From: a phage
Length of the DNA: 64,000 nt
Assembly (NCBI GenBank): GCA_018175075.1
Contig: GCA_018175075.1_4100.1
Direction: 5' to 3' (one strand)
Under the pieces are notes generated by a model. The model worked only from the letters and a program-made list of their open reading frames with translations, was not told where the DNA came from and searched no databases. Positions 11,216 to 56,731 of this stretch are shown here, piece after piece; position 1 is the first letter of the stretch, and every line of letters begins with the position of its first letter. Both the position numbers and the translations under genes were made by a program.

Positions 11216-11857
11216 ATGACTAAGCAAGACATATTCAAAACTTTAATTGACATTTTGCGTCCATCAAAAACTCGTTGTGCGATGGAGTTTGATATTCCTT
11301 ATGCTGAACGCGTAATCTTTCCACAAGTTAAAGCTGCTGGACTTACTTTGCTTGGAATGGGGATGTACTCTGTAGTAGTTGAACATAAAAACTATCATGG
11401 ACGTGCATTTAAAGTAACCACTTCACGCTGGGATGGTTTTCGTGCTTATGCAAAGTACTGCATTGAAAACGCAGGAACCAAGTTTCTTCCAGTGATCTAC
11501 AGTGCCAACGAACAAGGAAACTTTGGATGGTATGAGATGGACAAGTACTATCCTATAATTAAACAAAAAAATAATTATGATGACTTTGTTAGTACTAAAA
11601 TTGGAGATTTATATTCTTATGCACATGCTGGTCAGTACGCTACTTCAGTGAATGATATGCGTGGAAATTCTGAAGAGATTGCTATTGCAACGGTCGCTGC
11701 TAACATCATGAAAGAGTTTCACGGGCGTTTTGTACCAGACATTCATTCAAGTAATGTGATGATGGATAAAGATGGCAATGTATTCATTACTGATCCTCTT
11801 TCGTGTGATGTACGTAGAGAAATACCAGTTACTGAAGAAGATCCAGTTTTTTATTGA
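11216..11857 (+). CDS. putative atypical protein-kinase-like protein, 213 aa
   Basis: GAGGA RBS; catalytic-loop-like DIHSSNVMMDKDGNVFITD shared in pattern with products of 14993 and 56147. Confidence 0.4.
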   Translation: MTKQDIFKTLIDILRPSKTRCAMEFDIPYAERVIFPQVKAAGLTLLGMGMYSVVVEHKNYHGRAFKVTTSRWDGFRAYAKYCIENAGTKFLPVIYSANEQGNFGWYEMDKYYPIIKQKNNYDDFVSTKIGDLYSYAHAGQYATSVNDMRGNSEEIAIATVAANIMKEFHGRFVPDIHSSNVMMDKDGNVFITDPLSCDVRREIPVTEEDPVFY

Positions 11858-11918
11858 CAGAACTGATGTTCTGGTGTATTCTTAATAAACCATAAAAATT
11901 GCGGTAAAGGATAAAATC

Positions 11919-12200
11919 ATGCGTTCATTTGAAAACTTAATAGGTAAGCATCTTTTATCTGAAATTGATGCAGACGTTAAAGAATTATCCAAATCAAAAA
12001 GTTACATTCATTTGGATGAACTGTTTATTAAGTACGGTGAGATTGGTTTTAAGTCATTATTTGTTTTTACTATGAAAGTACATAGTTTAAAGTACTTCGA
12101 TTTGAGTTCTAAAGATGGTGAACCGAATCTATATTACATGTATTACCTTAAGAACAAAGATGAAGCTAATACATTACTCTCTGAATATATATTGGGGTAA
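11919..12200 (+). CDS. hypothetical protein, 93 aa
   Basis: ATG with AAAGGA RBS. Confidence 0.5.
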   Translation: MRSFENLIGKHLLSEIDADVKELSKSKSYIHLDELFIKYGEIGFKSLFVFTMKVHSLKYFDLSSKDGEPNLYYMYYLKNKDEANTLLSEYILG

Positions 12201-12202
12201 AA

Positions 12203-12541
12203 ATGGAACAATATTTTGAATTAATAAACAAAGTATCATTTTATGTAGTATCTTTGGTTTGGGTGTATTATATGTTTTGCTATATTATTGCATTCTTCCG
12301 ATATACTACTTTATATGAACGTATCTACTATGATGCCCCAATTTCATTCTTGATGTTTTGTGCATGTACGTGGGGAATATTAGAAGTACTGATATGTGGG
12401 TATAGTACTGATGAATTAAATCTGGTATCGGTGTTGACTGGGTTTTCATTTGTTGTTATGATAGCTGCCGTTCCAGTATGGTTGTTCTTTGGACTAGTTC
12501 ATCGCATTGATATATGGCGTTCTAATATCCCTGAAAAGTAA
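12203..12541 (+). CDS. small membrane protein, family A paralog
   Basis: hydrophobic; C-terminal R.N.PE(K/R) tail shared with next two genes. Confidence 0.55.
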   Translation: MEQYFELINKVSFYVVSLVWVYYMFCYIIAFFRYTTLYERIYYDAPISFLMFCACTWGILEVLICGYSTDELNLVSVLTGFSFVVMIAAVPVWLFFGLVHRIDIWRSNIPEK

Positions 12542-12544
12542 GGA

Positions 12545-12892
12545 TTGGAAATGATTTATTACACTAACATGTTTGCCTATGCTGTTGCTTGCATTTACAT
12601 TGTTTACTTCTTATTCGGTGGAGTACTGTGCTTCTTTAAGTACAAAACGTTGTTCAACCGAATGTACCCAAATCATCCAATTGTAGTTGTACTTTTGATT
12701 CTTTCAGTTTCTCAAATAATCGTTGAAACTACAATGGGTATCAGTAGTGTACATTATAGTTTTGGCACTATAGTAATTATTACTATGCTTATTGCATACA
12801 TTTTAGTACTTGGATATGGTATCTTTGGTAATATTGGTATGAAAATGTATCATCGAATTAAAACATTACGTGATAATCTACCGGAGCGTTGA
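12545..12892 (+). CDS. small membrane protein, family A paralog
   Basis: paralog of 12203 gene. Confidence 0.55.
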   Translation: MEMIYYTNMFAYAVACIYIVYFLFGGVLCFFKYKTLFNRMYPNHPIVVVLLILSVSQIIVETTMGISSVHYSFGTIVIITMLIAYILVLGYGIFGNIGMKMYHRIKTLRDNLPER

Positions 12893-12893
12893 T

Positions 12894-13238
12894 ATGTATA
12901 ATTTGAACCTAATCTCATATATTATAACAACACTGTTTACATTCTATGCCTTTGTTGGTATAATCCTACTGTACTTTAAATTTTATAAAGTGTTTAACCG
13001 TTTCTATCCTTCAATGGAGAATGAGTTTTTCTTTGTGTTGTACGTAGGTTACACATTAATGGCTACATGTTTCACTGTAGCCGATGGTGTCATCGGCATT
13101 AAAACTGATTCCCCAAATGGTAGTACGCTGGTTGCATTTATTCTTACTGGATTCCTTGCAACTTATATTGCCTTCATTACAACATGGTCAGTGGTTGAAT
13201 TTCTCTTGCGACTACGAAAGAATATGCCGAATCGATAG
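12894..13238 (+). CDS. small membrane protein, family A paralog
   Basis: paralog; ATG 1 nt after upstream stop. Confidence 0.5.
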   Translation: MYNLNLISYIITTLFTFYAFVGIILLYFKFYKVFNRFYPSMENEFFFVLYVGYTLMATCFTVADGVIGIKTDSPNGSTLVAFILTGFLATYIAFITTWSVVEFLLRLRKNMPNR

Positions 13239-13247
13239 GAGACATAT

Positions 13248-13502
13248 ATGTTTGCGTTGCGTAATAAAAACACTAAAGAATTATTATGTATTGATACCGT
13301 ATGGGATTGTGCGGGATCAACTACAGTTCTTGAAGAAGGAACTGGATATTGCGTGTTTGTTGTTCATGATAGGAATGAACTCGAATTATTACTTGCTGAG
13401 TTCAATGCTGGTGGTAATCCTAACAGTACTGAATACCCTGAGATTATCAATCCAGCACCACCAGGCTCTTATGAAATTCTACAACTGTGGGAGTTGAAGT
13501 AA
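13248..13502 (+). CDS. hypothetical protein, 84 aa
   Basis: ATG with AGGAGA RBS. Confidence 0.5.
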   Translation: MFALRNKNTKELLCIDTVWDCAGSTTVLEEGTGYCVFVVHDRNELELLLAEFNAGGNPNSTEYPEIINPAPPGSYEILQLWELK

Positions 13503-13882
13503 TGCGTCAAATGCACAAAGTAACCGAGCTAAACAAGCGTCTGGTTAAACAATCAATGTTCGAGGATAAAGAGTCTTATTATAACTTTAAACGTGCTGTA
13601 GAGGCTGCTATCCACATTCAGAAGCTTAAAGAACGTGGTTGTATTATTCTGGAAAATGGGTCGGAAGTTGTAACGGATGACTTTAGTGTAGCGTTTGATG
13701 TTTCACCTGACGGGACGCTATCAATGCCCCGCTTAGGAACTGGAAACATGACTGTTTGGGTTGGCTTCACTATGGGGAATGTACCTGGTACTGTGTACGT
13801 AGATGATGCGGAATTGAAAGACAGTTTCAAAAACTTATCTTATCTTGAACCACAATACGCACATGAAATGAATTTATTTTGA
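13502..13882 (+). CDS. hypothetical protein, 126 aa
   Basis: ATG overlapping upstream stop (TAATG). Confidence 0.5.
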   Translation: MRQMHKVTELNKRLVKQSMFEDKESYYNFKRAVEAAIHIQKLKERGCIILENGSEVVTDDFSVAFDVSPDGTLSMPRLGTGNMTVWVGFTMGNVPGTVYVDDAELKDSFKNLSYLEPQYAHEMNLF

Positions 13883-13883
13883 G

Positions 13884-13940
13884 TTGACAAACACATTCAG
13901 TACTGTATAATGCTTATCAAGGGGATGAACTTCTCATCCC
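13884..13940 (+). promoter_or_regulatory. sigma70-like promoter plus leader hairpin
   Basis: TTGACA, 16 nt, TATAAT, then GGGGATGA...TCATCCC hairpin. Confidence 0.55.
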
Positions 13941-13958
13941 TACAATCGAGGAACTACC

Positions 13959-14513
13959 ATGATTACTTTTAAGAAAACTGCTAACCACATCCATGAAATC
14001 TACATTAACGGTCACAAAGCTGGCCTTCTTCGTTTACTCGCCCATCATCCTGATGTTACCGTATCTGATAATGAACCTAAAGATTGGCGTGTATTTTTCT
14101 TTGGAAAGTACAGTGATTTTCAAGTATCAAACCTGAAGAACATTCGTTCAGTATGCACGTTAACTGAAATTAAAGAAAAGTTAGAAAAAGCATTGAAAAC
14201 TAATCCAGATGGTGTTCTTCCACCTGATAACTTTGTAGAGAAAGGTTATGCATTAGCTCATTTCAAAGATGGTACTATTCAATCTATCAGTACTGAATAT
14301 GAATATCAATGGACTGAGTACTTCACTTATGGATCGCGTAATACATTGATGGCTTCACGTAGTAAATTGGAAGAAGTACTGACTCGTATGAATGAACGCG
14401 AACGTCAATTTTATGACAAACCAGAAATGTGGAGTTCAACTTACATTGACCGTATTGACTATGTTATTATGACTCCAATCTTTGACACTGCTTACTATGA
14501 TTCTTTGAAATAA
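13959..14513 (+). CDS. hypothetical protein, 184 aa
   Basis: ATG with GAGGAA RBS. Confidence 0.55.
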   Translation: MITFKKTANHIHEIYINGHKAGLLRLLAHHPDVTVSDNEPKDWRVFFFGKYSDFQVSNLKNIRSVCTLTEIKEKLEKALKTNPDGVLPPDNFVEKGYALAHFKDGTIQSISTEYEYQWTEYFTYGSRNTLMASRSKLEEVLTRMNERERQFYDKPEMWSSTYIDRIDYVIMTPIFDTAYYDSLK

Positions 14514-14524
14514 GGATAACTTAT

Positions 14525-14701
14525 ATGAAACTACGTACTCGTAATCGACTGATGGATGCACTGTACCATGAACAGCTTTCACTGAATGAAGTGAAGCGAC
14601 AGTTAATGTACACATATCTGTTACCCGCTCGCATTGCAAAACAACGTGCTAAAGAATTGCTGAAAGAAGCAATCGAGTACTGGGAATCTGATTCGTACTA
14701 A
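14525..14701 (+). CDS. hypothetical small protein, 58 aa
   Basis: ATG with AAGGA RBS; below track size cutoff. Confidence 0.4.
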   Translation: MKLRTRNRLMDALYHEQLSLNEVKRQLMYTYLLPARIAKQRAKELLKEAIEYWESDSY

Positions 14702-14729
14702 TTGTCACGTTAATTAAGTGAGGCGATAA

Positions 14730-14981
14730 ATGAAAATTTTATTAGTTCTAATACTACTAATTGTTTTACCATTTACGTTAGTATCCCCTGAACTTGCATG
14801 GAATGTGTTTGTGTACTTACTATGTACTATTGTAGTAAATGGTATCTTGTTCTTAGTTCTATTCATAAATGGAATAGGACACGGTGGAGGATGGACCAGT
14901 ACTGCTGATATTGTACATAAAACCACTATGTCTTTATTTGTAGTGTGGAATTTATTCTGGACTTGGTTTGTGTTCTTCTAA
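14730..14981 (+). CDS. membrane protein, 83 aa
   Basis: GAGG RBS; hydrophobic. Confidence 0.5.
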   Translation: MKILLVLILLIVLPFTLVSPELAWNVFVYLLCTIVVNGILFLVLFINGIGHGGGWTSTADIVHKTTMSLFVVWNLFWTWFVFF

Positions 14982-14992
14982 TTAAAAAAAAT

Positions 14993-15364
14993 ATGAATAT
15001 AGATTTGAAAGGTGCAACACGAACTGTCATACTCATTGGGGAATATGCTATCAAGATTCCAACCTTTAAAAGTTGGAAGCTATTCTTAACAGGGATGATA
15101 GCTAACCTCAATGAATGTTCGTGGATGCAGTACTCCAAGCGTAGTAATAGTGGTATCTGCCCTACGTTGTGGTCATCATGTACTGGACTAGTAACTGTAC
15201 AGAAACGTTGTAAGCCAGTACAACATAGGGGTTTATTTTGGGTGGAGTTGTGTGCTTTAGCATTGGATTCAGAGTTAAGTACTGACTTCTTCTATTCAGA
15301 TGCGAAGCCAGAAAACTTTGGGTATCTGTGTGGTAAGTTGGTTAAACTTGATTATGGAGATTAA
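14993..15364 (+). CDS. putative small protein-kinase-like protein, 123 aa
   Basis: AIKIP (VAIK-like) and DAKPENFG...KLDYG (catalytic loop plus DFG-like); weak RBS. Confidence 0.4.
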   Translation: MNIDLKGATRTVILIGEYAIKIPTFKSWKLFLTGMIANLNECSWMQYSKRSNSGICPTLWSSCTGLVTVQKRCKPVQHRGLFWVELCALALDSELSTDFFYSDAKPENFGYLCGKLVKLDYGD

Positions 15365-15365
15365 T

Positions 15366-15635
15366 ATGTACGCACTGTATAATAAAGAAAAGAAACGATT
15401 TGCTAAGGTTGAAATTTCGATTGATACATTTGACATGTTGGAGTACTGTATTGTAACGGACTTATATGCTAACTTGTATTACGTTCTTGATGACGTATCA
15501 GTACTGCAACGATTGCTTGAGAATTCCAAAAGTCAATGCCAGGACATCCATGATGGTTCATCTTATGAAACACCTGAGTGTCCCCACGGGCAACTCGATG
15601 GGTATGAGATTGTTAAGTTGGGAATTGTTGAGTAA
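15366..15635 (+). CDS. hypothetical protein, 89 aa
   Basis: ATG with GGAGA RBS right after upstream stop. Confidence 0.45.
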   Translation: MYALYNKEKKRFAKVEISIDTFDMLEYCIVTDLYANLYYVLDDVSVLQRLLENSKSQCQDIHDGSSYETPECPHGQLDGYEIVKLGIVE

Positions 15636-15641
15636 AAGGTA

Positions 15642-15670
15642 TTGACACCGTACTCATTTAACTGTATTAT
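15642..15670 (+). promoter_or_regulatory. sigma70-like promoter
   Basis: TTGACA, 17 nt, TATTAT. Confidence 0.5.
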
Positions 15671-15700
15671 GTATGTACACCAACTAATGAGGAATCGGAA

Positions 15701-16060
15701 ATGGCATCTTTATCTGAAATCACTGAACTGAATCCACTGGTAATTAGTACTGTTCAACGCACCAAGACGTTTTACTTCCGTCCTGCTGATGGATGGAAAC
15801 GTGGAATGAATGGTGACTATCGAGTACTGGAAGATTCGCTCATCGAGCGTATCAACTCTGAACTACAGAAGTATGAAGGTGTTAAAGTTGTCCGTTCAAC
15901 TTCTCGTTATTTTGAGTACTACATTGAGTCTTCAACTGTAAATGAAAACTCATCATTCTCGGTGGATAACACTGATATTCTTCGCAATGCAGTTGGTTTG
16001 CTATGCAACATTGCAGAAGAAATGGGATTAACTATCACCACAATGAGTGAGTTAGAATAG
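15701..16060 (+). CDS. hypothetical protein, 119 aa
   Basis: ATG with GAGGAA RBS. Confidence 0.55.
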   Translation: MASLSEITELNPLVISTVQRTKTFYFRPADGWKRGMNGDYRVLEDSLIERINSELQKYEGVKVVRSTSRYFEYYIESSTVNENSSFSVDNTDILRNAVGLLCNIAEEMGLTITTMSELE

Positions 16061-16070
16061 AATAAAAAAA

Positions 16071-16095
16071 GGGTTGACTTAGGTCGGCCCTTTTG
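16071..16095 (+). terminator. rho-independent terminator
   Basis: GGGTTGAC...GTCGGCCC hairpin then TTTT. Confidence 0.65.
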
Positions 16096-16130
16096 CTATT
16101 ATATCTATATCGAAACGAAGGAGACAAACC

Positions 16131-16904
16131 ATGACCCGTCAAGAGAAAGCAATCCAAATCGAAAAAAACTTCAATAGCATGATGGCTGCACTGGAATGCC
16201 TTCTTGATACACAAGCTAACTCTATCAACTCTCTGATCGTATCAGGTAAAGGTGGTGTTGGTAAAACTTATAACGTTGACCAACGGTTGCAGAAAGCTGA
16301 TGATAACTTTGAAATCGACTACAAGAAAATCAGTGGTAAAGTAACTACTTTGGGTCTGTACGAAGCACTGTATCGTTCACGTCATGCCGCATCAGTACTG
16401 TTACTTGATGACGTTGATATCTTCTCTGACGAGACTAACATTGATTTGCTTAAAGCTGTGTTGGATACGTCAGAGAAGCGTGTAGTTTCTTACGCGACTT
16501 CTGCTAAGTACCTGGAACAGCAGGGTATCCCTAAGCAGTTTGAATTCCGTGGTAAAGTAATCTTTCTGACTAACAAAAACCTGTCACAGATTGCTAAAGG
16601 TAAAAGCAGCTTAGCACCACACATCGATGCACTGATCACTCGTAGTATCTTTGTTGACCTGCAACTGTTCACCAACGAAGAAGTGATGATTCACATTGAG
16701 AACATCATGAACAAAACTAACATCCTTGAAAACAATGGTGTTAACAAAAATGGTTGTAAAGCAATCCTGAATTGGATGCTGAACAACGAAGAACGTTTGC
16801 GTAGTCCATCACTGCGTATGCCAGTACTGATCGCTGGTTTGTATAATAAATTCCCATACGATTGGGAATCAATGGCAGAGAATATGTTCCTTGAGAAAAT
16901 TTAA
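16131..16904 (+). CDS. P-loop NTPase (Walker A/B ATPase), 257 aa
   Basis: Walker A SGKGGVGKT, Walker B VLLLDDVD; AAGGAG RBS; codon usage unlike neighbours. Confidence 0.65.
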   Translation: MTRQEKAIQIEKNFNSMMAALECLLDTQANSINSLIVSGKGGVGKTYNVDQRLQKADDNFEIDYKKISGKVTTLGLYEALYRSRHAASVLLLDDVDIFSDETNIDLLKAVLDTSEKRVVSYATSAKYLEQQGIPKQFEFRGKVIFLTNKNLSQIAKGKSSLAPHIDALITRSIFVDLQLFTNEEVMIHIENIMNKTNILENNGVNKNGCKAILNWMLNNEERLRSPSLRMPVLIAGLYNKFPYDWESMAENMFLEKI

Positions 16905-16913
16905 TTACATGTA

Positions 16914-16942
16914 TTGACAGTACTACACTATGGTAGTACTAT
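16914..16942 (+). promoter_or_regulatory. sigma70-like promoter
   Basis: TTGACA, 17 nt, TACTAT. Confidence 0.5.
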
Positions 16943-16971
16943 AACTTAATATTCACCACCGGAGATACGAT

Positions 16972-17310
16972 ATGCTTGAGTTTTTTAATTCAGATACAAT
17001 GATTAGTATTACTTTGATTTATCTGTTTGGTTTTTTCTTTTATCATGCACTGGTTGTAGTACTGTGGTATTTTAAAAAGAAAATTGTTTTTAAACTGTAT
17101 CCAGTAAGGAATTCATCACTAGTTCTTTACACACTAGTTCAAGGTTTGTTTGCAATTGTTGGTCTTATGGCACACTTAATTTATTGTGCCAATCCTCACT
17201 TGAACTCAATCTCACAATATATTGTATTCTTTGGGTTGTTCATTTGGTTAGTTGTATACTTAATCCATCTCATTATTCATGGTAGAGATAAAATTCGCGG
17301 AGACTTCTAA
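16972..17310 (+). CDS. small membrane protein, family B paralog
   Basis: first of seven coupled hydrophobic ORFs with basic C-termini. Confidence 0.5.
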   Translation: MLEFFNSDTMISITLIYLFGFFFYHALVVVLWYFKKKIVFKLYPVRNSSLVLYTLVQGLFAIVGLMAHLIYCANPHLNSISQYIVFFGLFIWLVVYLIHLIIHGRDKIRGDF

Positions 17311-49484: not shown

Positions 49485-49507
49485 GGTTGACTTCGGTCAG
49501 CCATTTT
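49485..49507 (+). terminator. rho-independent terminator
   Basis: GGTTGAC-TTCG-GTCAGCC hairpin then ATTTTG. Confidence 0.65.
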
Positions 49508-49539
49508 GCTATTATATATTCATTGAGAGATAGCTCACT

Positions 49540-50838: not shown

Positions 50839-50866
50839 AGCCCACTGGTTAACGCTGGTGGGCTTT
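50839..50866 (+). terminator. terminator-like hairpin
   Basis: AGCCCAC...GTGGGCT hairpin then TTTAATT. Confidence 0.5.
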
Positions 50867-50937
50867 AATTCATTACCCTATACAATGCCAGTACTAAACC
50901 GTTTATCTCGTTAGAATGCATTACAGGACGTTTGACA

Positions 50938-51135
50938 ATGATTAGCATGAAATCAGTACAAAAACAAATAGAAACATTATCAAAAATTAAACGTAAACAG
51001 TACTCGTTAGAATATACAATCAATGGTAACTATCATCTAATGAAAGAAAATAATTTTATAGTCATTGATGAATCATTGCAAATCATTAGTATAGTACTGA
51101 AAGCATTAATTAATGATAGAAAAAAATTAAAATAA
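50938..51135 (+). CDS. hypothetical protein, about 65 aa (AT-rich)
   Basis: ORF; start ambiguous (track start 50932 is TTG). Confidence 0.35.
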   Translation: MISMKSVQKQIETLSKIKRKQYSLEYTINGNYHLMKENNFIVIDESLQIISIVLKALINDRKKLK

Positions 51136-51139
51136 TCTA

Positions 51140-51168
51140 TTGACAATATCCTCCAGTACTGGCATAAT
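51140..51168 (+). promoter_or_regulatory. sigma70-like promoter
   Basis: TTGACA, 17 nt, CATAAT. Confidence 0.5.
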
Positions 51169-51228
51169 ACTTACATCAAGACGAGAACGTCACTAACCCA
51201 TAGGGTGCACAAATGTAACTATATAACA

Positions 51229-51305
51229 TCGATCAATAAATGATCAAAAAAGTACTGGATCAATTTAGCATAAGGCGTATAATTCTGATCAATTCTTGAT
51301 CAAAG
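51229..51305. repeat. cluster of five TGATCAA (GATC) sites
   Basis: GATC at about 51231, 51242, 51258, 51287, 51298 in a non-coding leader. Confidence 0.5.
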
Positions 51306-51464
51306 GCAATATACGCAGTTGAATTTATATAGACAGTACAAAGGCGTTACTATCCGTGGTAATGCTGGTGGATATGTAGTATCATGTGGTTTGAATAAGA
51401 TTAGCACTAGTAGTATTATTGTAGCATTACAGTACTATAGTATTTTTATAATGAGGTTAAAATA

Positions 51465-51722
51465 ATGGCAGTAGGATACGCGAAAGACGGGGCCGAACAA
51501 GACGAGATTAACGCAGTGATTCAGGCCGCCGTTAACCACGCTAGAAAGCAAATTAACGCACAAAGAGAATCACTAGTACATTGCCTCGACTGCGGCGATA
51601 AAATCCCTGAGAATCGACGCCAGGCCGTTATAGGGTGCATGTATTGTATTACTTGCCAGGCGGATCATGATAGTACTTTTAAAAGAGATCCGCGTAATTG
51701 TTGGCATAGATCTATGAGATAA
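51465..51722 (+). CDS. TraR/DksA-family C4 zinc-finger protein, 85 aa
   Basis: C-x2-C-x17-C-x2-C (CLDCGDKIPENRR...CMYCITC) with RKQINAQR upstream, typical of TraR/DksA. Confidence 0.7.
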   Translation: MAVGYAKDGAEQDEINAVIQAAVNHARKQINAQRESLVHCLDCGDKIPENRRQAVIGCMYCITCQADHDSTFKRDPRNCWHRSMR

Positions 51723-51729
51723 AAAGTAA

Positions 51730-51757
51730 TTGACAGTACTGAAAGATAGTGTATAAT
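51730..51757 (+). promoter_or_regulatory. sigma70-like promoter
   Basis: TTGACA, 16 nt, TATAAT, GTTTTATATC. Confidence 0.55.
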
Positions 51758-51786
51758 GTTTTATATCTTAAATGAGGATAGAAATC

Positions 51787-52143
51787 ATGGGAATACAACA
51801 TATCACGCGTACTACTGACAATGGCGAGATCACTGGTTATCAGGTACAGGGCAAAGTAGCACAATTGCAGTACTGGTTTGTTAAACGTGGAATCATTGCA
51901 CCGGATCTTGATTATGACCGTGTTGCTTTCATTGATTCTCTTTATGTTGATCCTGATAGTCGGGGCAATGGTGAAGGTAACGAATTAATGAATGCCTTTA
52001 TCGATGCCGCCGATGATTCAGATTGTATCATCTTAGAATGCGATACGGGAGAAGATAACGCCTTTAATCTTAAAGAATGGTACGAAGGTTTCGGATTCGA
52101 GGTATTGATAGATAGTGAATATCCTATCATGATTTTATCATAG
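51787..52143 (+). CDS. putative GNAT-family acetyltransferase-like protein, 118 aa
   Basis: GAGGA RBS; SRGNGEGNELMNAFIDAA and WYEGFGFE resemble GNAT motifs. Confidence 0.45.
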   Translation: MGIQHITRTTDNGEITGYQVQGKVAQLQYWFVKRGIIAPDLDYDRVAFIDSLYVDPDSRGNGEGNELMNAFIDAADDSDCIILECDTGEDNAFNLKEWYEGFGFEVLIDSEYPIMILS

Positions 52144-52146
52144 TAC

Positions 52147-52203
52147 TTGCATTTAGTTTTCAGTACTGTTATAGTACTTACATCAAGGGGAAACATCTTC
52201 CCC
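52147..52203 (+). promoter_or_regulatory. class-I early promoter plus leader hairpin
   Basis: TTGCAT, 17 nt, TATAGT, then GGGGAAACATCTTCCCC. Confidence 0.55.
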
Positions 52204-52221
52204 TACTAAGAGGAAATGAAA

Positions 52222-52410
52222 ATGGAAAACTTATCAAGTATTTTAGTACAAGATGATTTCGGTAATCCTGGAAGTGCTATCATAGTTCGGGGCAATAAAG
52301 CAACGTTTGTTATTGCTGGTGGACCCGTACAGCGTAGCATTAAAAATAATGCTGTTACCATTAATAATGTACGCTATCGCTTAGATAAAGAATTAATTCA
52401 TAAACTGTAA
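52222..52410 (+). CDS. hypothetical protein, 62 aa
   Basis: ATG with AAGAGGAAA RBS (alternative start 52216). Confidence 0.5.
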   Translation: MENLSSILVQDDFGNPGSAIIVRGNKATFVIAGGPVQRSIKNNAVTINNVRYRLDKELIHKL

Positions 52411-52437
52411 TATTAATTTAATAGAGGATAACAATAA

Positions 52438-52761
52438 ATGTACATTCATACTACTATCACAAAGGAAGTCCGTTGCCAGTTCGAAAGTATTCCGGGCGTA
52501 TGTTTCATCACTGGTACGTTTTCCCCTGGTGATCGTGATAATCCAGTACTGTTACAATTACGCCATCCATCATGGGATAAAGCATTTGATCTACCGTTGA
52601 ATGAATTCGCAACTACTGCTGAAAAGTACATTAAAAATATTCGCGAGAATGATCGACTATTCATTAATGCTTTTAGTGATTCCGCGTTAAGCGAGATCCA
52701 CGGTGTATTGGTTGCAATCATGGAATCAATGGAGAAAACTAAATTCAAACAAGGTGAATAA
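52438..52761 (+). CDS. hypothetical protein, 107 aa
   Basis: ATG with AGAGGA RBS. Confidence 0.55.
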   Translation: MYIHTTITKEVRCQFESIPGVCFITGTFSPGDRDNPVLLQLRHPSWDKAFDLPLNEFATTAEKYIKNIRENDRLFINAFSDSALSEIHGVLVAIMESMEKTKFKQGE

Positions 52762-52767
52762 AAACTA

Positions 52768-52827
52768 TTGACAAGATAATCTAGTACTGTATAATAAGTT
52801 ACATGAAGGGGAGAAATGATTCTCCCC
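52768..52827 (+). promoter_or_regulatory. early promoter plus leader hairpin
   Basis: TTGACA, 16 nt, TATAAT, then GGGGAGAAATGATTCTCCCC. Confidence 0.6.
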
Positions 52828-52844
52828 ACTGAGAGGAAAGAAAA

Positions 52845-53057
52845 ATGCAAGGTCAACTAATCGTTCGTAAATGGTCTGATACTAACGCTAAACCGTGGGA
52901 TGTACAATACATCGGCCCCAATGGTGAATCCAGATATCAACCAGGTGTAACGCATAGTACTGAGCAATTCGCCGCCGCTCATCGTGAACGTCTGTTACAA
53001 TCAATGCAGCAAGGTTCCGGTGAAAAATTCATTCAGGATCATTGGCTGAAAGATTAA
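52845..53057 (+). CDS. hypothetical protein, 70 aa
   Basis: ATG with GAGAGGAAA RBS. Confidence 0.55.
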   Translation: MQGQLIVRKWSDTNAKPWDVQYIGPNGESRYQPGVTHSTEQFAAAHRERLLQSMQQGSGEKFIQDHWLKD

Positions 53058-53064
53058 AAAGTAC

Positions 53065-53121
53065 TTGCACAGTACTGAATAAAGTGTATAATGTTTTATA
53101 TCGGAAGGGGAATAGTTCCCC
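53065..53121 (+). promoter_or_regulatory. class-I early promoter plus leader hairpin
   Basis: TTGCAC, 16 nt, TATAAT, then GGGGAATAGTTCCCC. Confidence 0.6.
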
Positions 53122-53143
53122 TCCCAACAAAGAGGAAAGTATA

Positions 53144-53317
53144 ATGATCCAAGTAGAATTATCAGTACTGAAAGATCTGTTTTATCGGTTAGGTACTAAT
53201 GGCGAGTATCCTAAAAGTGATACCGCAAAACTTTTTGTATCACTCGACTTATGGCAACGCGAACAATTAGTAATGTCCTGGCGTAAAGGTAAAGCAGATC
53301 GCGAGGTGAAAGCATGA
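53144..53317 (+). CDS. hypothetical protein, 57 aa
   Basis: ATG with AGAGGAAA RBS; track ORF 53042 extends into the promoter. Confidence 0.5.
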   Translation: MIQVELSVLKDLFYRLGTNGEYPKSDTAKLFVSLDLWQREQLVMSWRKGKADREVKA

Positions 53318-53463
53318 AAGAATTCTTATTCGAAGTAGTGTTTCAAGGTGTCGGTAGTAACCAACTGATTCGATCAAGTGGTTACAATGTCAACCAGGCA
53401 TGGAATAACATTAAACAAATGTACCCGAACGCTATCACCTATCGCAACCCGAAAGAAGTTTAA
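53314..53463 (+). CDS. hypothetical small protein, 49 aa
   Basis: ATGA overlap with upstream stop; followed by terminator. Confidence 0.4.
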   Translation: MKEFLFEVVFQGVGSNQLIRSSGYNVNQAWNNIKQMYPNAITYRNPKEV

Positions 53464-53477
53464 AAATAATTGAAAAA

Positions 53478-53502
53478 GGGATTGACTCCGGTCAGTCCCT
53501 TT
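53478..53502 (+). terminator. rho-independent terminator
   Basis: GGGATTGACTCCGGTCAGTCCC hairpin then TTT. Confidence 0.65.
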
Positions 53503-53529
53503 GCTATTATATACGCATAGAAACAAATC

Positions 53530-53557
53530 AGCCCACCGGGTGCATAAATGTATCTAT
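53530..53557 (+). repeat. AGCCCACCGGGTGC element, forward copy
   Basis: AGCCCACCGGGTGCATAAATGTATCTAT, followed by GCTGGTGG. Confidence 0.45.
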
Positions 53558-53600
53558 TGTTTGCTGGTGGCTAGTACTGAAAACTATTTTAAAAAAGTAC

Positions 53601-53628
53601 TTGCATTGTACTTAGAATAAAGTATAAT
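53601..53628 (+). promoter_or_regulatory. class-I early promoter driving candidate ncRNA
   Basis: TTGCAT, 16 nt, TATAAT, GTTTTACATC. Confidence 0.55.
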
Positions 53629-53634
53629 GTTTTA

Positions 53635-53715
53635 CATCAGGACGGGGAACGAAACAAGTAACCCCGTTAAGTAGTCCAGGAGTAAGACATACGAAAAACT
53701 CCCCTGATAAAATAG
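53635..53715 (+). ncRNA. candidate structured RNA, copy 2
   Basis: near-identical to 42419-42502 with stem changes that keep pairing (CGGGG...CCCCG); no ORF. Confidence 0.4.
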
Positions 53716-53716
53716 T

Positions 53717-53744
53717 TTGACAATAGAAAGTAAACGAGTATAAT
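53717..53744 (+). promoter_or_regulatory. sigma70-like promoter
   Basis: TTGACA, 16 nt, TATAAT. Confidence 0.55.
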
Positions 53745-53777
53745 ACTCACATCAACCACTGATAAGGAAACATAAAA

Positions 53778-54053
53778 ATGCGGATTCTACTGACAGCTAA
53801 CGAAATCGAACAAGTACTGACTACTAACCTGGAAGACTGGAAACGTGAAGCAGATATCCAGGCGGTTCAACAGCTTAACGATGAGTTAACGCCGGATGAC
53901 TTAAGCAAGATTGTAGATCCTCAATTCTACGAAGATATCCACGACACCGCGTTAAGCGTCGAGGATGTACTAGATAAGCACTACATTGATATTGATTTGC
54001 AGGTTTACGGTCGTAAAAACTTTATCACTATTCACGACATTTACAATAATTAA
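53778..54053 (+). CDS. hypothetical acidic protein, 91 aa
   Basis: ATG with AAGGAAA RBS. Confidence 0.55.
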   Translation: MRILLTANEIEQVLTTNLEDWKREADIQAVQQLNDELTPDDLSKIVDPQFYEDIHDTALSVEDVLDKHYIDIDLQVYGRKNFITIHDIYNN

Positions 54054-54056
54054 GTA

Positions 54057-54118
54057 TTGACAAAGTATCTTAGTACTGTATAATAGTTTACATCGAGTGA
54101 GGGGAAACGGTTCCCCTC
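54057..54118 (+). promoter_or_regulatory. early promoter plus leader hairpin (about 90 bp module, copy 1)
   Basis: TTGACA, 16 nt, TATAAT, then GAGGGGAAACGGTTCCCCTC. Confidence 0.6.
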
Positions 54119-54141
54119 CTAACAAAGAGAGAGAAATAAAA

Positions 54142-54324
54142 ATGGCTAAGTGCACTATCTGCAAGAAAGAAATAGTATTAGTTCCAAGTGCCCGTGAACG
54201 TGCCGCTCGGTTCGGTGGCAAAGCGTCAGACTATACAAAAATGTTTACTACCCATGCAGCTTGCCAGGTAGCAAAACGTTCACAAGAAAGCGTAGAATTA
54301 ATGCGTAAACTTTCCAAAAAATAA
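54142..54324 (+). CDS. small Cys-containing protein, 60 aa
   Basis: AGAGAGA RBS; CTIC...HAAC. Confidence 0.5.
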   Translation: MAKCTICKKEIVLVPSARERAARFGGKASDYTKMFTTHAACQVAKRSQESVELMRKLSKK

Positions 54325-54327
54325 GTA

Positions 54328-54388
54328 TTGACAAAGTATCTTAGTACTGTATAATAGTTTACATCAAGTGAGGGGAATGGTTCCCCTC
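54328..54388 (+). promoter_or_regulatory. early promoter plus leader hairpin (module copy 2)
   Basis: TTGACA, 16 nt, TATAAT, then GAGGGGAATGGTTCCCCTC. Confidence 0.6.
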
Positions 54389-54411
54389 CTAACTAAAAGA
54401 GAGAAATAAAA

Positions 54412-54735
54412 ATGGCTATGATCCTTGCCCAGAAAGTAGAATTGAAAATTGTAACCTCATTTGACATTAACGTTAATCGGTGGACTGATTCACACGGCAA
54501 TACTTACCACTCTTGCTACGTGTCTGCGTTAATTGGCGACCGCTGGGAAGACCTGGGACATGAAACCTTTACATACGGTTACGGCACACAAGGCGAATAC
54601 ACGGGCTTGGAGATCATTAAAGAAACCGTTATAGGTTTCAACCCGAAAGAAAAAGTTATTCACCAAATCGAAAAAGAGATTAACAAAGAAATAACAGTTC
54701 GATACAACGATGTAAAACGTAAGAAAGACATGTAA
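54412..54735 (+). CDS. hypothetical protein, 107 aa (paralog of 47590 gene)
   Basis: AGAGAGAAA RBS; conserved motifs. Confidence 0.6.
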   Translation: MAMILAQKVELKIVTSFDINVNRWTDSHGNTYHSCYVSALIGDRWEDLGHETFTYGYGTQGEYTGLEIIKETVIGFNPKEKVIHQIEKEINKEITVRYNDVKRKKDM

Positions 54736-54757
54736 TAGAATCCATTTAAAGTACTAT

Positions 54758-54786
54758 TTGACATTGCCCAGATAGTACTTTATAAT
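54758..54786 (+). promoter_or_regulatory. sigma70-like promoter
   Basis: TTGACA, 17 nt, TATAAT. Confidence 0.55.
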
Positions 54787-54830
54787 AGACTCTAACTTGT
54801 AGTACTAACTTAACTAATAGGATGTATACC

Positions 54831-55226
54831 ATGATTACTAAATTCTACGCTACCCGTGAAGCTGCCCGTATTGTTGCACGCGAGGAAGGAGCAGCATTTA
54901 AAGACATGGGCAAAGATGCACCGAAAGGCCAACGCTGGGCCGTACAGTTCAAAGAGATCTCTGATATTGTGAATTCACCTGAGCCAGTACTAACAGCAGC
55001 AGAACTAAAACGAGCGGATATGCTGGCGGCAATACTTGACGCACAAGATGAGTTTATCGCTGGTTCTGATATCAAAGTACAGGTAAACCACACCGCATGG
55101 ACTCACGCGGATCACCTGGCAAACCTTAAGCGTCCAAGTGAACTGATTCGCAACCAGAAAGAGATCCGACATGATCGTAAGGGTAATCGTGTAACAGTAT
55201 ACAGTAAACGCCGCCAGGTTATCTAA
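54831..55226 (+). CDS. hypothetical protein, 131 aa (paralog of 41555 gene)
   Basis: AGGA RBS; conserved N- and C-terminal blocks. Confidence 0.6.
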   Translation: MITKFYATREAARIVAREEGAAFKDMGKDAPKGQRWAVQFKEISDIVNSPEPVLTAAELKRADMLAAILDAQDEFIAGSDIKVQVNHTAWTHADHLANLKRPSELIRNQKEIRHDRKGNRVTVYSKRRQVI

Positions 55227-55248
55227 TAACTTGCAGTACTAACAACAC

Positions 55249-55273
55249 GGCGGGATCAGTTCCCGCCTTTTTT
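55249..55273 (+). terminator. rho-independent terminator
   Basis: GGCGGGA-TCAGT-TCCCGCC hairpin then TTTTTT. Confidence 0.7.
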
Positions 55274-55287
55274 ATAGGACAAACAAA

Positions 55288-55542
55288 ATGATTAAGGTTC
55301 AACTATATAAAGATAACATCTTACGGGTACACTATAAAGCACCTCAGAGAATCATCACAAAGGCCGTACAGCTTGCTAATGAGTTTATTAATGGTAACCT
55401 ATTACCTAGGAAGTTAAGCAACGGGAAACTGCGTGTAATCGACGTGGACACTAACAACAGGATAGTAATCGAGAACACAGGAAAGATAAACCTTTATGAG
55501 CATCAACAATACAATAAGAAAATAAAACTAATATCACGTTGA
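55288..55542 (+). CDS. hypothetical protein, 84 aa
   Basis: ATG with AGGA RBS. Confidence 0.5.
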   Translation: MIKVQLYKDNILRVHYKAPQRIITKAVQLANEFINGNLLPRKLSNGKLRVIDVDTNNRIVIENTGKINLYEHQQYNKKIKLISR

Positions 55543-55567
55543 CAGTACTCAAATGTTTTAGTACTAT
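55539..55567 (+). promoter_or_regulatory. sigma70-like promoter (module copy 1)
   Basis: TTGACA, 17 nt, TACTAT. Confidence 0.5.
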
Positions 55568-55595
55568 GTACACATACCAACACGGGAGAAACAAA

Positions 55596-55814
55596 ATGAA
55601 ATTATCTAAAATCGAAAAGAAAACTATTGATGAAGCAGTTAAGCACGGTTATACCTTTCGTAATGATTCACATTTTACCAATTTTCAACAAGGGTATCGT
55701 ACTATTAAAAAACTAATTGACAAAGGTTTATTAGTTGAAGTCAATAACGGTAACGGTATCGAGTATCAACCAACACAAGACGCATTTTATTTTAAGAAAT
55801 ATAATATTATCTAA
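55596..55814 (+). CDS. hypothetical protein, 72 aa
   Basis: ATG with GGGAGAAA RBS. Confidence 0.5.
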   Translation: MKLSKIEKKTIDEAVKHGYTFRNDSHFTNFQQGYRTIKKLIDKGLLVEVNNGNGIEYQPTQDAFYFKKYNII

Positions 55815-55843
55815 TTGACAGTACTCAAATGTTTTAGTACTAT
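55815..55843 (+). promoter_or_regulatory. sigma70-like promoter (module copy 2)
   Basis: TTGACA, 17 nt, TACTAT; about 60 bp direct repeat of 55539 module. Confidence 0.5.
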
Positions 55844-55872
55844 ATGTACATACCAACACGGGGAGAAACAAA

Positions 55873-56115
55873 ATGATTACTTTAGAAAAACGTATCAAAG
55901 AAACTACATCGCTGGTGGAACTGTTAACAGTACTGAAATGTAAAACAACACCATTCAGCACGCCGGACTTTATTAATATGGTTGATGTTAATGGTCGCTA
56001 TCGTATCACGGTCGTGAATGGTGCGGCGAAAGTATTCAGTACTAAAAACACTAAGGAAGTGATCCACGCCGTTAATGTTAAAAAAGTAGTTGCCATTGAT
56101 AGTAAAGTACTGTAA
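55873..56115 (+). CDS. hypothetical protein, 80 aa
   Basis: ATG with GGGGAGAAA RBS. Confidence 0.5.
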   Translation: MITLEKRIKETTSLVELLTVLKCKTTPFSTPDFINMVDVNGRYRITVVNGAAKVFSTKNTKEVIHAVNVKKVVAIDSKVL

Positions 56116-56146
56116 GATAGTTTCATTAACTCAAGGAGTAAATGCA

Positions 56147-56731
56147 ATGCGTAATTATACTAAATTCATCCGTACACTGTCAGAAATGGAAACCAACAAA
56201 GAGATCCTTTCAGCTTGTCGGTTAGCTGGCCTGGAGATCATCGGGGCGGGATCTTCCCGTATAGTTTTCGCTTTAAATGATCGGTTAGTGATTAAGGTCG
56301 CGAATTGTGATGCGGGTGTAGAACAAAATGAAACTGAATGTAAGGTATGGAATTTTTTAGACTATGACCGCCCTCAGTTGAAACAGTACTTTGCAAAGGT
56401 GCATATGCATTTATGCGATCCTGATAATATGTTTATCGTTATGGATCGGTTGAGTACTGCAAGCAAAGGCAGTGTGAAGCACGTTAACGCGTGCAATGAA
56501 TTAAAGTACAATATTAAACGTAATGCAATCGAACGCCAGCACCGCTTTGCTGATGCACTACAACACGTTGATGATACATTATCAACACTAACGATAAGAG
56601 ATATCAGAAAACAGAATATCGGCCAGGATCGTAATGGACTTATTAAAGTACTTGATTACGGTTTAACCCGCAATATCTGGAATCAGTACTATAAAAAGCG
56701 TGATGTAGCAGCAAGTAAGGTAACACGATAA
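56147..56731 (+). CDS. putative protein-kinase-like protein, 194 aa
   Basis: AAGGAG RBS; Gly-loop-like IIGAGSSRIV, VIKVA, catalytic-loop-like RDIRKQNIG and LDYG (DFG-like). Confidence 0.5.
   Translation: MRNYTKFIRTLSEMETNKEILSACRLAGLEIIGAGSSRIVFALNDRLVIKVANCDAGVEQNETECKVWNFLDYDRPQLKQYFAKVHMHLCDPDNMFIVMDRLSTASKGSVKHVNACNELKYNIKRNAIERQHRFADALQHVDDTLSTLTIRDIRKQNIGQDRNGLIKVLDYGLTRNIWNQYYKKRDVAASKVTR

Follow-up and report, generated by a model that had tools for sequence, protein, structure and literature searches.

Kinase-like genes of two families in a segment of an Asteriusvirus jumbo phage genome

Recent work showed that the T7 kinase, gp0.7 (T7K), disarms many of the defence systems of bacteria via mass phosphorylation, and experiments with it and other Autographiviridae homologues revealed promiscuous phosphorylation of Ser, Thr and Tyr together with anti-defence activity (T7K paper). 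Its kinase domain ends about 25 residues past DPV, the equivalent of the DFG motif, and is followed by a C-terminal shut-off (SO)/DNA-binding domain. Other points of comparison are the Hanks-type kinases (TTK/MPS1, MKK4/MKK7, PknB) and several shorter enzymes. The minimal bacterial effector kinases OspG, NleH1/2 and HopBF1 have chains of 160-176 residues, are secreted into eukaryotic cells and are not encoded by phages; the small atypical kinases RIO, Bud32 and the archaeal RNA kinase Ark1 keep the helical C-lobe in 173-270 residues. Three genes described here, ORF1, ORF2 and ORF3, encode protein-kinase-like (PKL) products, none of which contains a complete bilobal Pkinase domain (APE, αF, αG-αI). 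No sequence-level relationship to the effector kinases and no sequence similarity to the small atypical kinases was detected for these ORFs, and ORF2 is some 40 residues shorter than the former.

Genes and their setting

The window, the whole stretch of 64,000 nucleotides that was analysed, comes from an Asteriusvirus, a jumbo coliphage of the 121Q/G17 type, as judged by 95-99% DNA identity to 121Q, G17, PBECO4 and others. A preliminary description of this DNA had proposed three ORFs carrying kinase motifs, and all three, with the motifs quoted for them, are indeed in place on the plus strand (Table 1). They lie within a long array of small plus-strand genes interspersed with terminator/sigma70-promoter modules. 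The hairpin and promoter directly upstream of ORF1 are a variant of this repeated module, and the G17 annotation has a terminator at the equivalent place. The perfect consensus site heading the gene string of ORF2 would, from its sequence, act as a promoter. In phage vB_Ec-M-J, the orthologue of ORF3 is found inside the 21.5-kb direct terminal repeat. Because of this punctuated small-gene array and the location of ORF3 in a terminal repeat, ORF1, ORF2 and ORF3 are probably expressed early by the host RNA polymerase, the timing being read from consensus promoter matches only. Depletion of Ser, Thr and Tyr has been reported as a mark of phages with T7K, but in the proteins of the window it did not reach significance.

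The starts of ORF1 and ORF3 are preceded by the Shine-Dalgarno sequences AGAGGA and AGGAG, respectively, and that of ORF2 is the same as in the G17 annotation. An alternative ATG for ORF1 at 11183 was rejected, as it lies within the -10 hexamer of the promoter-like site and the homologues all start with MTK.

Table 1. Positions of the three genes, their kinase motifs and the neighbouring transcription signals
Feature	Position	Strand	Description
Terminator hairpin overlapping sigma70-like promoter	11153-11190	+	TTGACT-18-TATGAT; directly 5' of ORF1; sequence and promoter scan
ORF1	11216-11857	+	213 aa; T7 gp0.7 (T7K)-family kinase domain without shut-off domain, by sequence
ORF1 Gly loop	11348-11380	+	LGMGMYSVV
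ORF1 Lys66	11405-11416	+	AFKV
ORF1 catalytic loop	11738-11755	+	DIHSSN (context VPDIHSSNVM)
ORF1 DFG equivalent	11789-11800	+	TDPL (context ITDPL)
Promoter-like site, perfect sigma70 consensus	13884-13911	+	TTGACA-16-TATAAT; head of ORF2-containing gene string
ORF2	14993-15364	+	123 aa; mini-kinase ending one residue past DFG-like DYG
ORF2 Gly loop	15008-15028	+	KGATRTV
ORF2 Lys21	15047-15055	+	AIK
ORF2 αC Glu41	15092-15115	+	..NLNE
ORF2 catalytic loop	15296-15322	+	SDAKPENFG
ORF2 DFG-like motif	15347-15364	+	LDYGD, then stop codon
ORF3	56147-56731	+	194 aa; PHROG 4301 kinase-like protein
ORF3 Gly loop	56237-56266	+	IIGAGSSRIV
ORF3 Lys50	56285-56302	+	VIKVA (context LVIKVA)
ORF3 αC Glu64	56336-56338	+	
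ORF3 catalytic loop	56597-56617	+	RDIRKQN (context IRDIRKQNIG)
ORF3 DFG-like motif	56651-56668	+	LDYGLT (context VLDYGLT)
Terminator hairpin and sigma70-like promoter module	56743-56780	+	closes ORF3 transcription unit

ORF1 and the T7 kinase family

On sequence grounds, ORF1 is a kinase domain of the T7K family that lacks the shut-off domain. It matches PHROG 15752 (E 1.8e-90) and PHROG 2828, the T7 kinase family (E 2.7e-15), and shares 26% identity with T7K in BLASTP (E 1e-7); its family profile aligns by hhalign with residues 61-230 of gp0.7 with a probability of 98.5% (E 3.9e-15). All active-site motifs of T7K have a counterpart, as seen in the aligned pairs LGMGMYS/LGNGHFS, FKV/IKV, DIHSSN/DMHSGN and ITDPL/ITDPV, and G47, G49, K66, D175, H177, N180, D193 and P194 are invariant in 26 homologues, among which the αC Glu was not identified. 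The third position of the DPV-type motif is Leu rather than Val, and this Val has been found to be less conserved in jumbophage T7K homologues (T7K paper). The chain ends at residue 213, only 18 residues past DPL, much as the T7K kinase domain ends soon after DPV, and the alignment stops at residue 230 of the 359 in gp0.7, leaving out the SO domain. That domain is a hallmark of the T7-like architecture and not of the kinase-domain family. No match to the Pfam Pkinase model (PF00069) was obtained for ORF1.

Both genes occupy an early-type region, yet T7K comes from a T7-like podovirus and ORF1 from a 350-kb myovirus; the T7K homologues are hyper-promiscuous Ser/Thr/Tyr kinases that disarm defence systems. 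The G17 orthologue is annotated as 'putative protein kinase, PHA00451' and has been published as a jumbophage T7K homologue, listed as having no SO domain (T7K paper). The Sharanji orthologue (WNN14432.1) has likewise been published already, and the Sharanji genome paper lists the orthologue of ORF3 (WNN14351.1) as 'another protein kinase'. The novelty resides in the family of ORF2; orthologues of the other two had been flagged as kinases previously.

ORF2, ORF3 and the PHROG 4301 superfamily

ORF2 and ORF3 are members of a single superfamily, PHROG 4301, which is specific to phages and derives from the Hanks-type Ser/Thr kinases. The HMM of this group, catalogued as 'unknown function', recognizes both of them about equally well (E 2.5e-42 for ORF2, 8.1e-42 for ORF3) and all 141 sampled members of the ORF2 family (E down to 8e-44), and a broad ORF2-family profile aligns with the ORF3 family by hhalign at 95.9% (E 5.2e-9). 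What is new here, for a group without functional annotation, is the kinase assignment and an architecture that ends at DFG. The three distinct small kinases of the preliminary description thus stand as three PKL genes, but not as three unrelated inventions, and their co-occurrence in one segment is less unusual than it sounds, two of them having been flagged in published genome analyses.

The fold of ORF2 is seen in a confident AF2 model (pLDDT 90, pTM 0.81), ORF2 being the only one of the three for which a fold is shown. The strands and helices of the model come in the order of a kinase N-lobe, then αE, the catalytic loop and β7-β8, and no helix follows β8. Over these elements the model matches the PKL fold of solved kinases: Foldseek returned kinases only among the PDB matches listed, and viral kinases plus many uncharacterised phage proteins of 117-210 residues from BFVD. 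At the level of sequence the similarity is faint. Neither ORF2 nor any of 141 family members (at E≤0.01) matches Pfam Pkinase, and the best PDB hit of the ORF2 profile alone is TTK at E 0.07. The family comprises at least 1,212 representative clusters (50% identity, E≤1e-3), and its members are small: nearly all of the 145 inspected fall within 105-150 residues and all but 5 within 92-164 (median about 123). Of 60 C-termini inspected, about 40 end 0-2 residues past the D-Y/F-G/A motif. Among 154 sequences, K21 and E41 are conserved in 100%, G7, R10, G110 and D120 in 99-100%, D/E103 in 99%, N/S108 in 97% and K105 in 87%, with about one-third of the family having E..S in place of D..N. ORF2 itself is 91-99% conserved among Asteriusvirus records. 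An orthologue is present in phAPEC6, where it carries no annotation.

ORF3 has an N-terminal helical extension of about 30 residues, a standard spacing from hinge to catalytic loop and a 22-residue basic tail past DYG. Its match to Pkinase (E 0.002, profile positions 26-152) falls below the Pfam threshold, with 17.9 bits against a cut-off of 31.7. Searched against the PDB, the family profile aligns from the Gly loop to past DFG with MKK4 (E 1.6e-4) and MKK7 (E 5e-4), marginal values, and retrieves 252 sequences at E≤1, kinases being all but two of the 60 listed. A weak match to the PD-T4-6 defence-kinase models was also found (E 2.4e-4). Residues G33, G35, S36, R38, K50, E64, D152, D170 and G172 are invariant in the family, while the catalytic loop varies at positions +2 to +4 (DIRKQN, DISKTN, DMREQQ, DMHCRN). 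The structure model of ORF3 is of low confidence (pLDDT 49), so that its fold rests on these marginal sequence and profile matches and on kinship with ORF2. A 194-residue RaK2 protein in BFVD, whose predicted structure matches the ORF2 model (E 8e-5), is probably RaK2_00356, the ORF3 orthologue.

In each of the families there is little or no variation in the Gly loop, the β3 Lys, the catalytic (HRD-type) Asp, the Asn or the DFG-type Asp. The αC Glu is invariant in those of ORF2 and ORF3, in which all six catalytic features of the Hanks type (these five and the αC Glu) are conserved. With the Hanks-type kinases the two share the Gly loop, VAIK-type Lys, αC Glu and DYG(L)/DFG; ORF2 also has the D-x-K-x-x-N form of the catalytic loop, which reads D-I-R-K-Q-N in ORF3. 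Both lack the activation segment with APE, αF, αG, αH and αI. In ORF2, αD is missing as well, and only 31 residues separate β5 from the catalytic Asp, compared with about 45 in PKA.

As judged from sequence, the kinase assignment is proven by homology and conservation rather than by the loose motif. The latter, D-x4-N...D[YFP], occurs four times in all ORFs of the window against 4.85 expected from shuffles, that is, at chance level; the strict form ending in G occurs twice against 0.155 expected. The preliminary description would have yielded to chance motifs or to a lack of fold similarity. Instead, comparison with kinase folds by profile and structure found kinase similarity, and each of the three products has independent homology evidence (PHROG, hhalign or profile against PDB).

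Possible function and alternative readings

From homology, the ORF2 fold, conserved catalytic residues and gene organisation we infer an enzymatic activity, timing, substrates and biological role for the three products. ORF2 and ORF3 keep the N-lobe, helix αE, the catalytic loop and the Mg-binding DYG, and their chains stop at DYG or 22 residues on. The Lys-Glu pair would grip ATP together with the Gly loop, the Asn and the DYG Asp would bind Mg2+, and the catalytic-loop Asp would transfer the γ-phosphate. Because the chain ends at or near DYG, the activation segment and the substrate-binding sub-lobe αF-αI are both absent. Without an activation loop these proteins would be constitutively 'on'. 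With no lobe for substrate docking, they would either have low selectivity or rely on self-association or on binding a host protein. By analogy with T7K, the targets may be host (and phage) proteins, during takeover and the disarming of defence systems. The best explanation as a whole, which we consider reasonably probable, is that these are three real, conserved PKL genes of two families, with a likely role as constitutively active early phosphotransferases in takeover or anti-defence. A bolder proposal, which we put forward tentatively and would not yet bet on, is that ORF2-type proteins are the smallest natural protein kinases, a very large phage family missed by Pfam and routine annotation. 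They would work on their own as phosphotransferases without regulation, or else as 'half-kinases' that obtain the missing C-lobe through self-association or from the host protein under attack. Jumbo phages would then use T7K-like, ORF3-type and ORF2-type enzymes side by side against defence and housekeeping proteins of the host, disarming these by phosphorylation.

ORF2 and ORF3 might instead be pseudokinases or ATP-binding proteins that transfer no phosphate and, by binding nucleotide or a protein of the host, serve as sponge, decoy or allosteric inhibitor. What follows DFG in other kinases is absent from them, including αF, around which the catalytic spine is organised in the known kinase structures; the catalytic loop of the ORF3 family is variable at +2 to +4, and the E..S form is found in about a third of the ORF2 family. 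However, pseudokinases typically lose at least one of the Lys, Glu, catalytic Asp and DFG Asp, and these are kept at 99-100% in the 154 ORF2-family sequences and are invariant in the ORF3 family, which makes such a reading unlikely. Equally improbable is an action on small molecules or nucleic acids (a nucleotide signal, metabolite, antibiotic-like compound or RNA), or another chemistry on the kinase fold such as AMPylation or glutamylation: D-A-K-P-E-N and DYG(L) are the Ser/Thr protein-kinase versions (HRDLKPEN, DFGL), the H-x-D-x4-N 'Brenner' motif and helical substrate-binding C-lobe of the APH/ChoK type were not found, and at the level of sequence only Hanks kinases (TTK, MKK4/7, PknB-type) were matched.

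The kinases could also be defensive, directed not at the host but at competing phages, through superinfection exclusion or abortive infection. The Stk kinase of prophage 933W excludes phage HK97, an ORF2-family member sits in a moron position between Rz and Nu1 in Salmonella lambdoid prophages, and the weak similarity of ORF3 to the PD-T4-6 models points the same way. Yet the genes considered here belong to a virulent jumbo phage and to a small-gene array with sigma70-type promoters, and anti-defence activity has been demonstrated for the family of ORF1, so that we give this idea little credence. That ORF2 is what decay has left of a longer kinase gene, or that the motifs are chance matches, is scarcely credible. 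The loose motif does occur at chance rate, ORF2 does stop one residue past DYG, and its phAPEC6 orthologue is unannotated; but this reading is refuted by the number of clusters, among whose 145 inspected members length (about 120 residues) and, mostly, end point are alike, by the conservation within Asteriusvirus, by the compact AF2 fold and by the highly significant homology of ORF1 to T7K. The genes downstream of ORF2-family members are mutually unrelated in different phages, and no split C-lobe gene was evident among them.

A T7K-type kinase and two kinase-like genes of another family in one phage suggest that takeover by phosphorylation has a wider and more modular basis than T7 alone would indicate. 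If the ORF2 family is active, it would tell how little of the kinase fold suffices, namely the N-lobe, αE, catalytic loop and DFG in about 120 residues, a matter relevant to kinase structural biologists and protein engineers; if inactive, it would still be a widespread unannotated phage ATP-binding module worth naming. A single role for the whole family is unlikely because its genes are also found within structural modules and, in lambdoid prophages, at late or moron positions. The question is directly testable, as the family is large and present in tractable phages; its carriers include T-even-like coliphages (among them the K-12-infecting PaulHMueller), Pseudomonas siphophages and Salmonella prophages.

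Three kinase-like genes and the T7K-type domain of ORF1

The DNA around the three ORFs (Table) is 95-99% identical to that of Escherichia jumbo phages of the genus Asteriusvirus, among them 121Q, PBECO4, G17, phAPEC6 and Sharanji, with genomes of 348-386 kb; the window has a GC content of 36%, and the region consists of densely packed small genes on the plus strand. The preliminary description had proposed three divergent small protein-kinase-like genes here, arguing from D-x4-N and DFG-like motifs. All three ORFs are borne out, and the motifs quoted were found in each. The called starts are also right: AGAGGA precedes the ATG of ORF1 and MTK opens all of its homologues (the ATG of a longer ORF, at 11183, falls within a -10 hexamer), AGGAG precedes the ATG of ORF3, and ORF2 begins at the same ATG as in the G17 annotation. 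As a bare pattern, the loose motif proved worthless, 4.85 matches being expected in all window ORFs and 4 observed; its strict form, D-x4-N...D[YFP]G, occurs only in ORF2 and ORF3 (2 matches against 0.155 expected in all window ORFs). It is homology, not the motif, that supplies the decisive evidence for kinase relatedness, and on that basis the kinase-like reading is sound. A comparison of all six-frame ORFs of the window with the three family HMMs found no further kinase-like genes. Of the annotation libraries, NCBIfam contributed nothing of use and PADLOC no more than weak matches to ORF3.

Table. Features of the window
Feature	Coordinates	Strand	Description
ORF1	11216-11857	+	213 aa, T7K homologue
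ORF2	14993-15364	+	123 aa, mini-kinase
ORF3	56147-56731	+	194 aa, kinase-like
Repeated module	16074-16104		near-identical copy
Repeated module	49487-49517		near-identical copy
Repeated module	53482-53512		near-identical copy
Repeated module	56750-56780		near-identical copy
Repeated module	59014-59044		near-identical copy
Repeated module	11153-11190		variant
Small ORF	10394-10717		Lys/Asp-rich tail
Tandem paralogues	12203-13238		three proteins, 112-115 aa
denV comparison region	15366-16060		no denV match
ORF3 and neighbours	~39450-60980		corresponds to terminal repeat

ORF1 is related to the phage T7 gp0.7 protein kinase (T7K). It matches PHROG 15752 (E 1.8e-90), whose label, 'protein kinase; inhibitor of host transcription...', comes from T7 gp0.7, as well as PHROG 2828 (E 2.7e-15), of which gp0.7 itself is a member (T7K paper). 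A profile of 26 ORF1 homologues aligned with gp0.7 residues 61-230 at a probability of 98.5% (E 3.9e-15), and pairwise BLASTP gave 26% identity (E 1e-7), with active-site pairs LGMGMYS/LGNGHFS, FKV/IKV, DIHSSN/DMHSGN and ITDPL/ITDPV. Residues G47, G49, K66, D175, H177, N180, D193 and P194 are invariant among the homologues. Unlike gp0.7, ORF1 has no counterpart of the C-terminal shut-off (SO) domain, and its chain ends 18 residues past the DPL motif. The homology had been published before: WNN14432.1 is the ORF1 orthologue given in the Sharanji genome paper, and that of G17 is annotated 'putative protein kinase, PHA00451'. ORF1 itself had no match in the Pfam copy searched, which lacks PF27024; since all ORF1 homologues compared (P0029-P0055) carry a precomputed match to PF27024.1, a Pfam family devoted to the T7K-type kinase domain seems to be a very recent addition.

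The ORF2 family and its relationship to ORF3

ORF2 had no match in Pfam, NCBIfam or PADLOC, and a 15-sequence profile found nothing in the PDB; it matches PHROG 4301 ('unknown function'; E 2.5e-42), the family that ORF3 matches too. Its AF2 model is confident (pLDDT 90.2, pTM 0.81) and runs through β1-β3, with Lys21 on β3, a long αC carrying Glu41, β4-β5, an αE helix (79-92), a short helix and β7-β8, the chain closing at D120-Y-G-D. When this model was compared with the PDB using Foldseek, only kinases were found among the matches listed, with a probability of ~1 and TM values of 0.5-0.65.

When 1.84 billion representatives were searched exhaustively with the family HMM, the ORF2 family comprised 1,212 clusters at E≤1e-3, of which 638 reached E≤1e-10. 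All but five of 145 members inspected are 92-164 aa long (median ~123), and about two-thirds of 60 C-termini lie 0-2 residues past the D-Y/F-G/A motif. The longer members (160-257 aa) showed no recognisable Pfam domain; a 1,073-aa match was rejected as a translated tandem repeat. In an alignment of 154 sequences, K21 and E41 are conserved in 100%, G7, R10, P23, G34, G110 and D120 in 99-100%, K105 in 87%, Asp or Glu at the catalytic position in 99%, and Asn or Ser at position 108 in 97%. In about one third of the members, E...S replaces D...N at ORF2 positions 103 and 108 (for example, P0084, P0087, P0089 and P0097), and Glu for the catalytic Asp and Ser for the Mg-binding Asn occur mostly in the same sequences (..VE.K..SFG..). 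The two substitutions seem to covary, and such an active-site variant could denote a subfamily of distinct function. All 141 members searched match PHROG 4301, and none matched Pkinase at E≤0.01; against the PDB, the broad family profile gave 23 sub-threshold matches, all but the last of them to TTK kinase (E 0.07-0.2). By tblastn, the family is present in 115 phage records, including Asteriusvirus, T-even-like coliphages (JS10, IME341 and PaulHMueller, a phage of E. coli K-12), Kuravirus-size phages, Aeromonas and Erwinia jumbo phages and Pseudomonas siphophages, where a few of the genes bear the machine annotation 'serine/threonine kinase'.

ORF3 is far rarer, with only 13 relatives in an index of 5.8 billion proteins, and these are restricted by tblastn to RaK2-like jumbo phages of Escherichia, Klebsiella, Salmonella, Erwinia, Yersinia and Pectobacterium, variously annotated as 'hypothetical', 'protein kinase', 'PknA' or 'PRP4'. 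Alone, it gave a below-threshold match to Pkinase (E 0.002; profile positions 26-152, from the N-lobe to DFG), a match to MKK4 in the PDB (E 0.008) and only weak matches to the PADLOC PD-T4-6 models. The ORF3-family profile matched MKK4 (E 1.6e-4) and MKK7 (E 5e-4), with an alignment extending from the Gly loop to beyond DFG, and hit 252 PDB sequences at E≤1, kinases making up all but two of the 60 matches listed. Invariant in the family are G33, G35, S36 and R38 of the Gly loop, K50, E64, D152, D170 and G172, and the catalytic Asp lies ~51 residues from β5, a normal kinase distance; 22 residues follow DYG, and the N-terminus carries an additional helical stretch of ~30 residues. The AF2 model, built on a 14-sequence alignment, is unusable as a fold (pLDDT 49), the β1-β2-β3-αC order being seen only in its N-terminal third, which scored better (pLDDT 61-83 by block). 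The predicted structure of a 194-aa RaK2 protein in BFVD matches the ORF2 model (E 8e-5); this protein, which can almost certainly be equated with RaK2_00356, an orthologue 36% identical to ORF3, gives the ORF3 fold indirect structural support.

The broad ORF2-family profile aligned with the ORF3 family end to end (95.9%, E 5.2e-9; the narrow profile gave 66%), and the two proteins are distant paralogues within one phage superfamily. ORF1 represents a distinct lineage. Its direct kinship with ORF2 or ORF3 was considered and rejected, profile comparisons being not significant (hhalign probability 1.6-3.8%) and a weak 'AGLxxLGxG' stretch being the only likeness seen. What the three have in common is a chain that ends at or shortly past the DFG-equivalent, and therefore has neither an activation segment nor αF-αI.

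Proposed mechanism and novelty

If the proteins work as their mechanistically characterised kinase homologues do, ATP would be held in position by the Gly loop and the Lys-Glu pair, Mg2+ would be bound by the Asn and the Asp of DYG or DPL, and the catalytic-loop Asp would act as the base. The Lys at +2 (D-A-K-P-E-N in ORF2) is a Ser/Thr-kinase signature. With no activation loop, regulation by phosphorylation is not expected and activity should be constitutive; similarly, as there is no P+1 loop or αG platform, intrinsic substrate selectivity is expected to be low. Alternatively, dimerisation or binding to a host protein might provide stability and specificity, in the way that OspG gains them from its partner, E2~Ub; a 'minimal and atypical' kinase fold has a precedent in HopBF1. 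T7K is the best functional model for ORF1, which would then phosphorylate host and phage proteins promiscuously and in a burst; in the case of T7K this inactivates defence systems (T7K paper). ORF1 would be expected to lack the bias of T7K towards nucleic-acid-binding proteins because it has no DNA-binding SO domain. The pooled Ser/Thr/Tyr content was 17.9% in window proteins versus 21.7% in G17 structural proteins (per-protein p = 0.17), a comparison confounded by S/T-rich fibre proteins.

Two of the three genes had already been reported, ORF3 having been noticed as a kinase in silico: the Sharanji paper lists its orthologue WNN14351.1 as 'another protein kinase, which function is unknown'. 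The ORF2 family is a real surprise for kinase structure. ORF2 is unannotated in Asteriusvirus, and a literature search for a phage 'minimal/mini kinase' family or PHROG 4301 returned nothing relevant. The kinase nature of the family, its size and its DFG-terminal architecture appear to be undescribed in the literature searched, in the Pfam copy and in the precomputed Pfam matches of its relatives.

Transcription and gene neighbourhoods

A hairpin-terminator/TTGACT-18-TATGAT module lies directly upstream of ORF1 and another hairpin-terminator/promoter module directly downstream of ORF3, and the gene string with ORF2 is headed by a perfect TTGACA-16-TATAAT. The repeated intergenic module combines a GC-rich terminator hairpin with a sigma70-like promoter, whose -35 box (TTGACT) lies within the hairpin and is followed by GCTATTATAT. 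Five copies of the exact form, TTGACTyCGGTCAGyCCyTTTGCTATTATAT, were counted in the window, where 0 are expected; the module probably punctuates early transcription units. These elements suggest transcription of the kinase-like genes by the host sigma70 polymerase, and therefore early expression.

The related-locus search, seeded with alignment A2, gave 31 loci. When all ORFs of 36 mini-kinase loci were clustered, no broadly shared neighbour emerged as a candidate trans C-lobe or substrate, and the genes directly downstream were mutually unrelated; on this evidence it seems to be a gene that stands alone, and these loci gave no sign of a separately encoded C-lobe for the mini-kinase. The sole recurrent neighbour is a denV-like gene, found in two lineages (6 loci). 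In 121Q and G17, a single gene separates the ORF2 orthologue from a T4 endonuclease V-like denV downstream of it, and five viral contigs resembling Pseudomonas siphophages have a denV-like gene immediately 3' of their mini-kinase; tblastn found no denV in the window. The comparison set window 15366-16060 against L001 6375-7227 and L011 3711-4226, and also covered L030 and L033-L036. As the two lineages are unrelated, the pairing may be either meaningful or coincidental. Contexts otherwise vary widely, the gene adjoining terminase in a 69-kb phage and lying inside a head-tail module in another context. In a 64-kb metagenomic phage contig (L006), an accessory island holds a Tad2-like (anti-Thoeris) gene (2159-2524) 1.5 kb upstream of the mini-kinase (4001-4381), consistent with an anti-defence gene neighbourhood. 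In Salmonella lambdoid prophages (L007 and L008, 4001-4372), the family member P0025 occupies a 'moron' position between Rz and Nu1, flanked on either side by 270-400 bp of non-coding DNA.

In phage vB_Ec-M-J, the ORF3 orthologue lies within the 21.5-kb direct terminal repeat and is therefore present in two copies per genome, close to a physical end. ORF3 and its neighbours correspond to this repeat (vB_Ec-M-J 1-21525, L010), with boundaries that are extrapolated rather than aligned, and the window would therefore seem to pass from unique DNA into the terminal repeat. The gene string that contains ORF1 continues, directly after it, with three tandem paralogous small hydrophobic proteins, 22-31% identical, which share FFKY..LFNR.YP and a C-terminal R.N.PER motif and are probably membrane proteins. 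The product of another small ORF, hypothetical in G17, ends in a Lys/Asp-rich low-complexity tail (KNKKDKDKDKKEDKKPLKDKKKDKKPNPFKNNKP).
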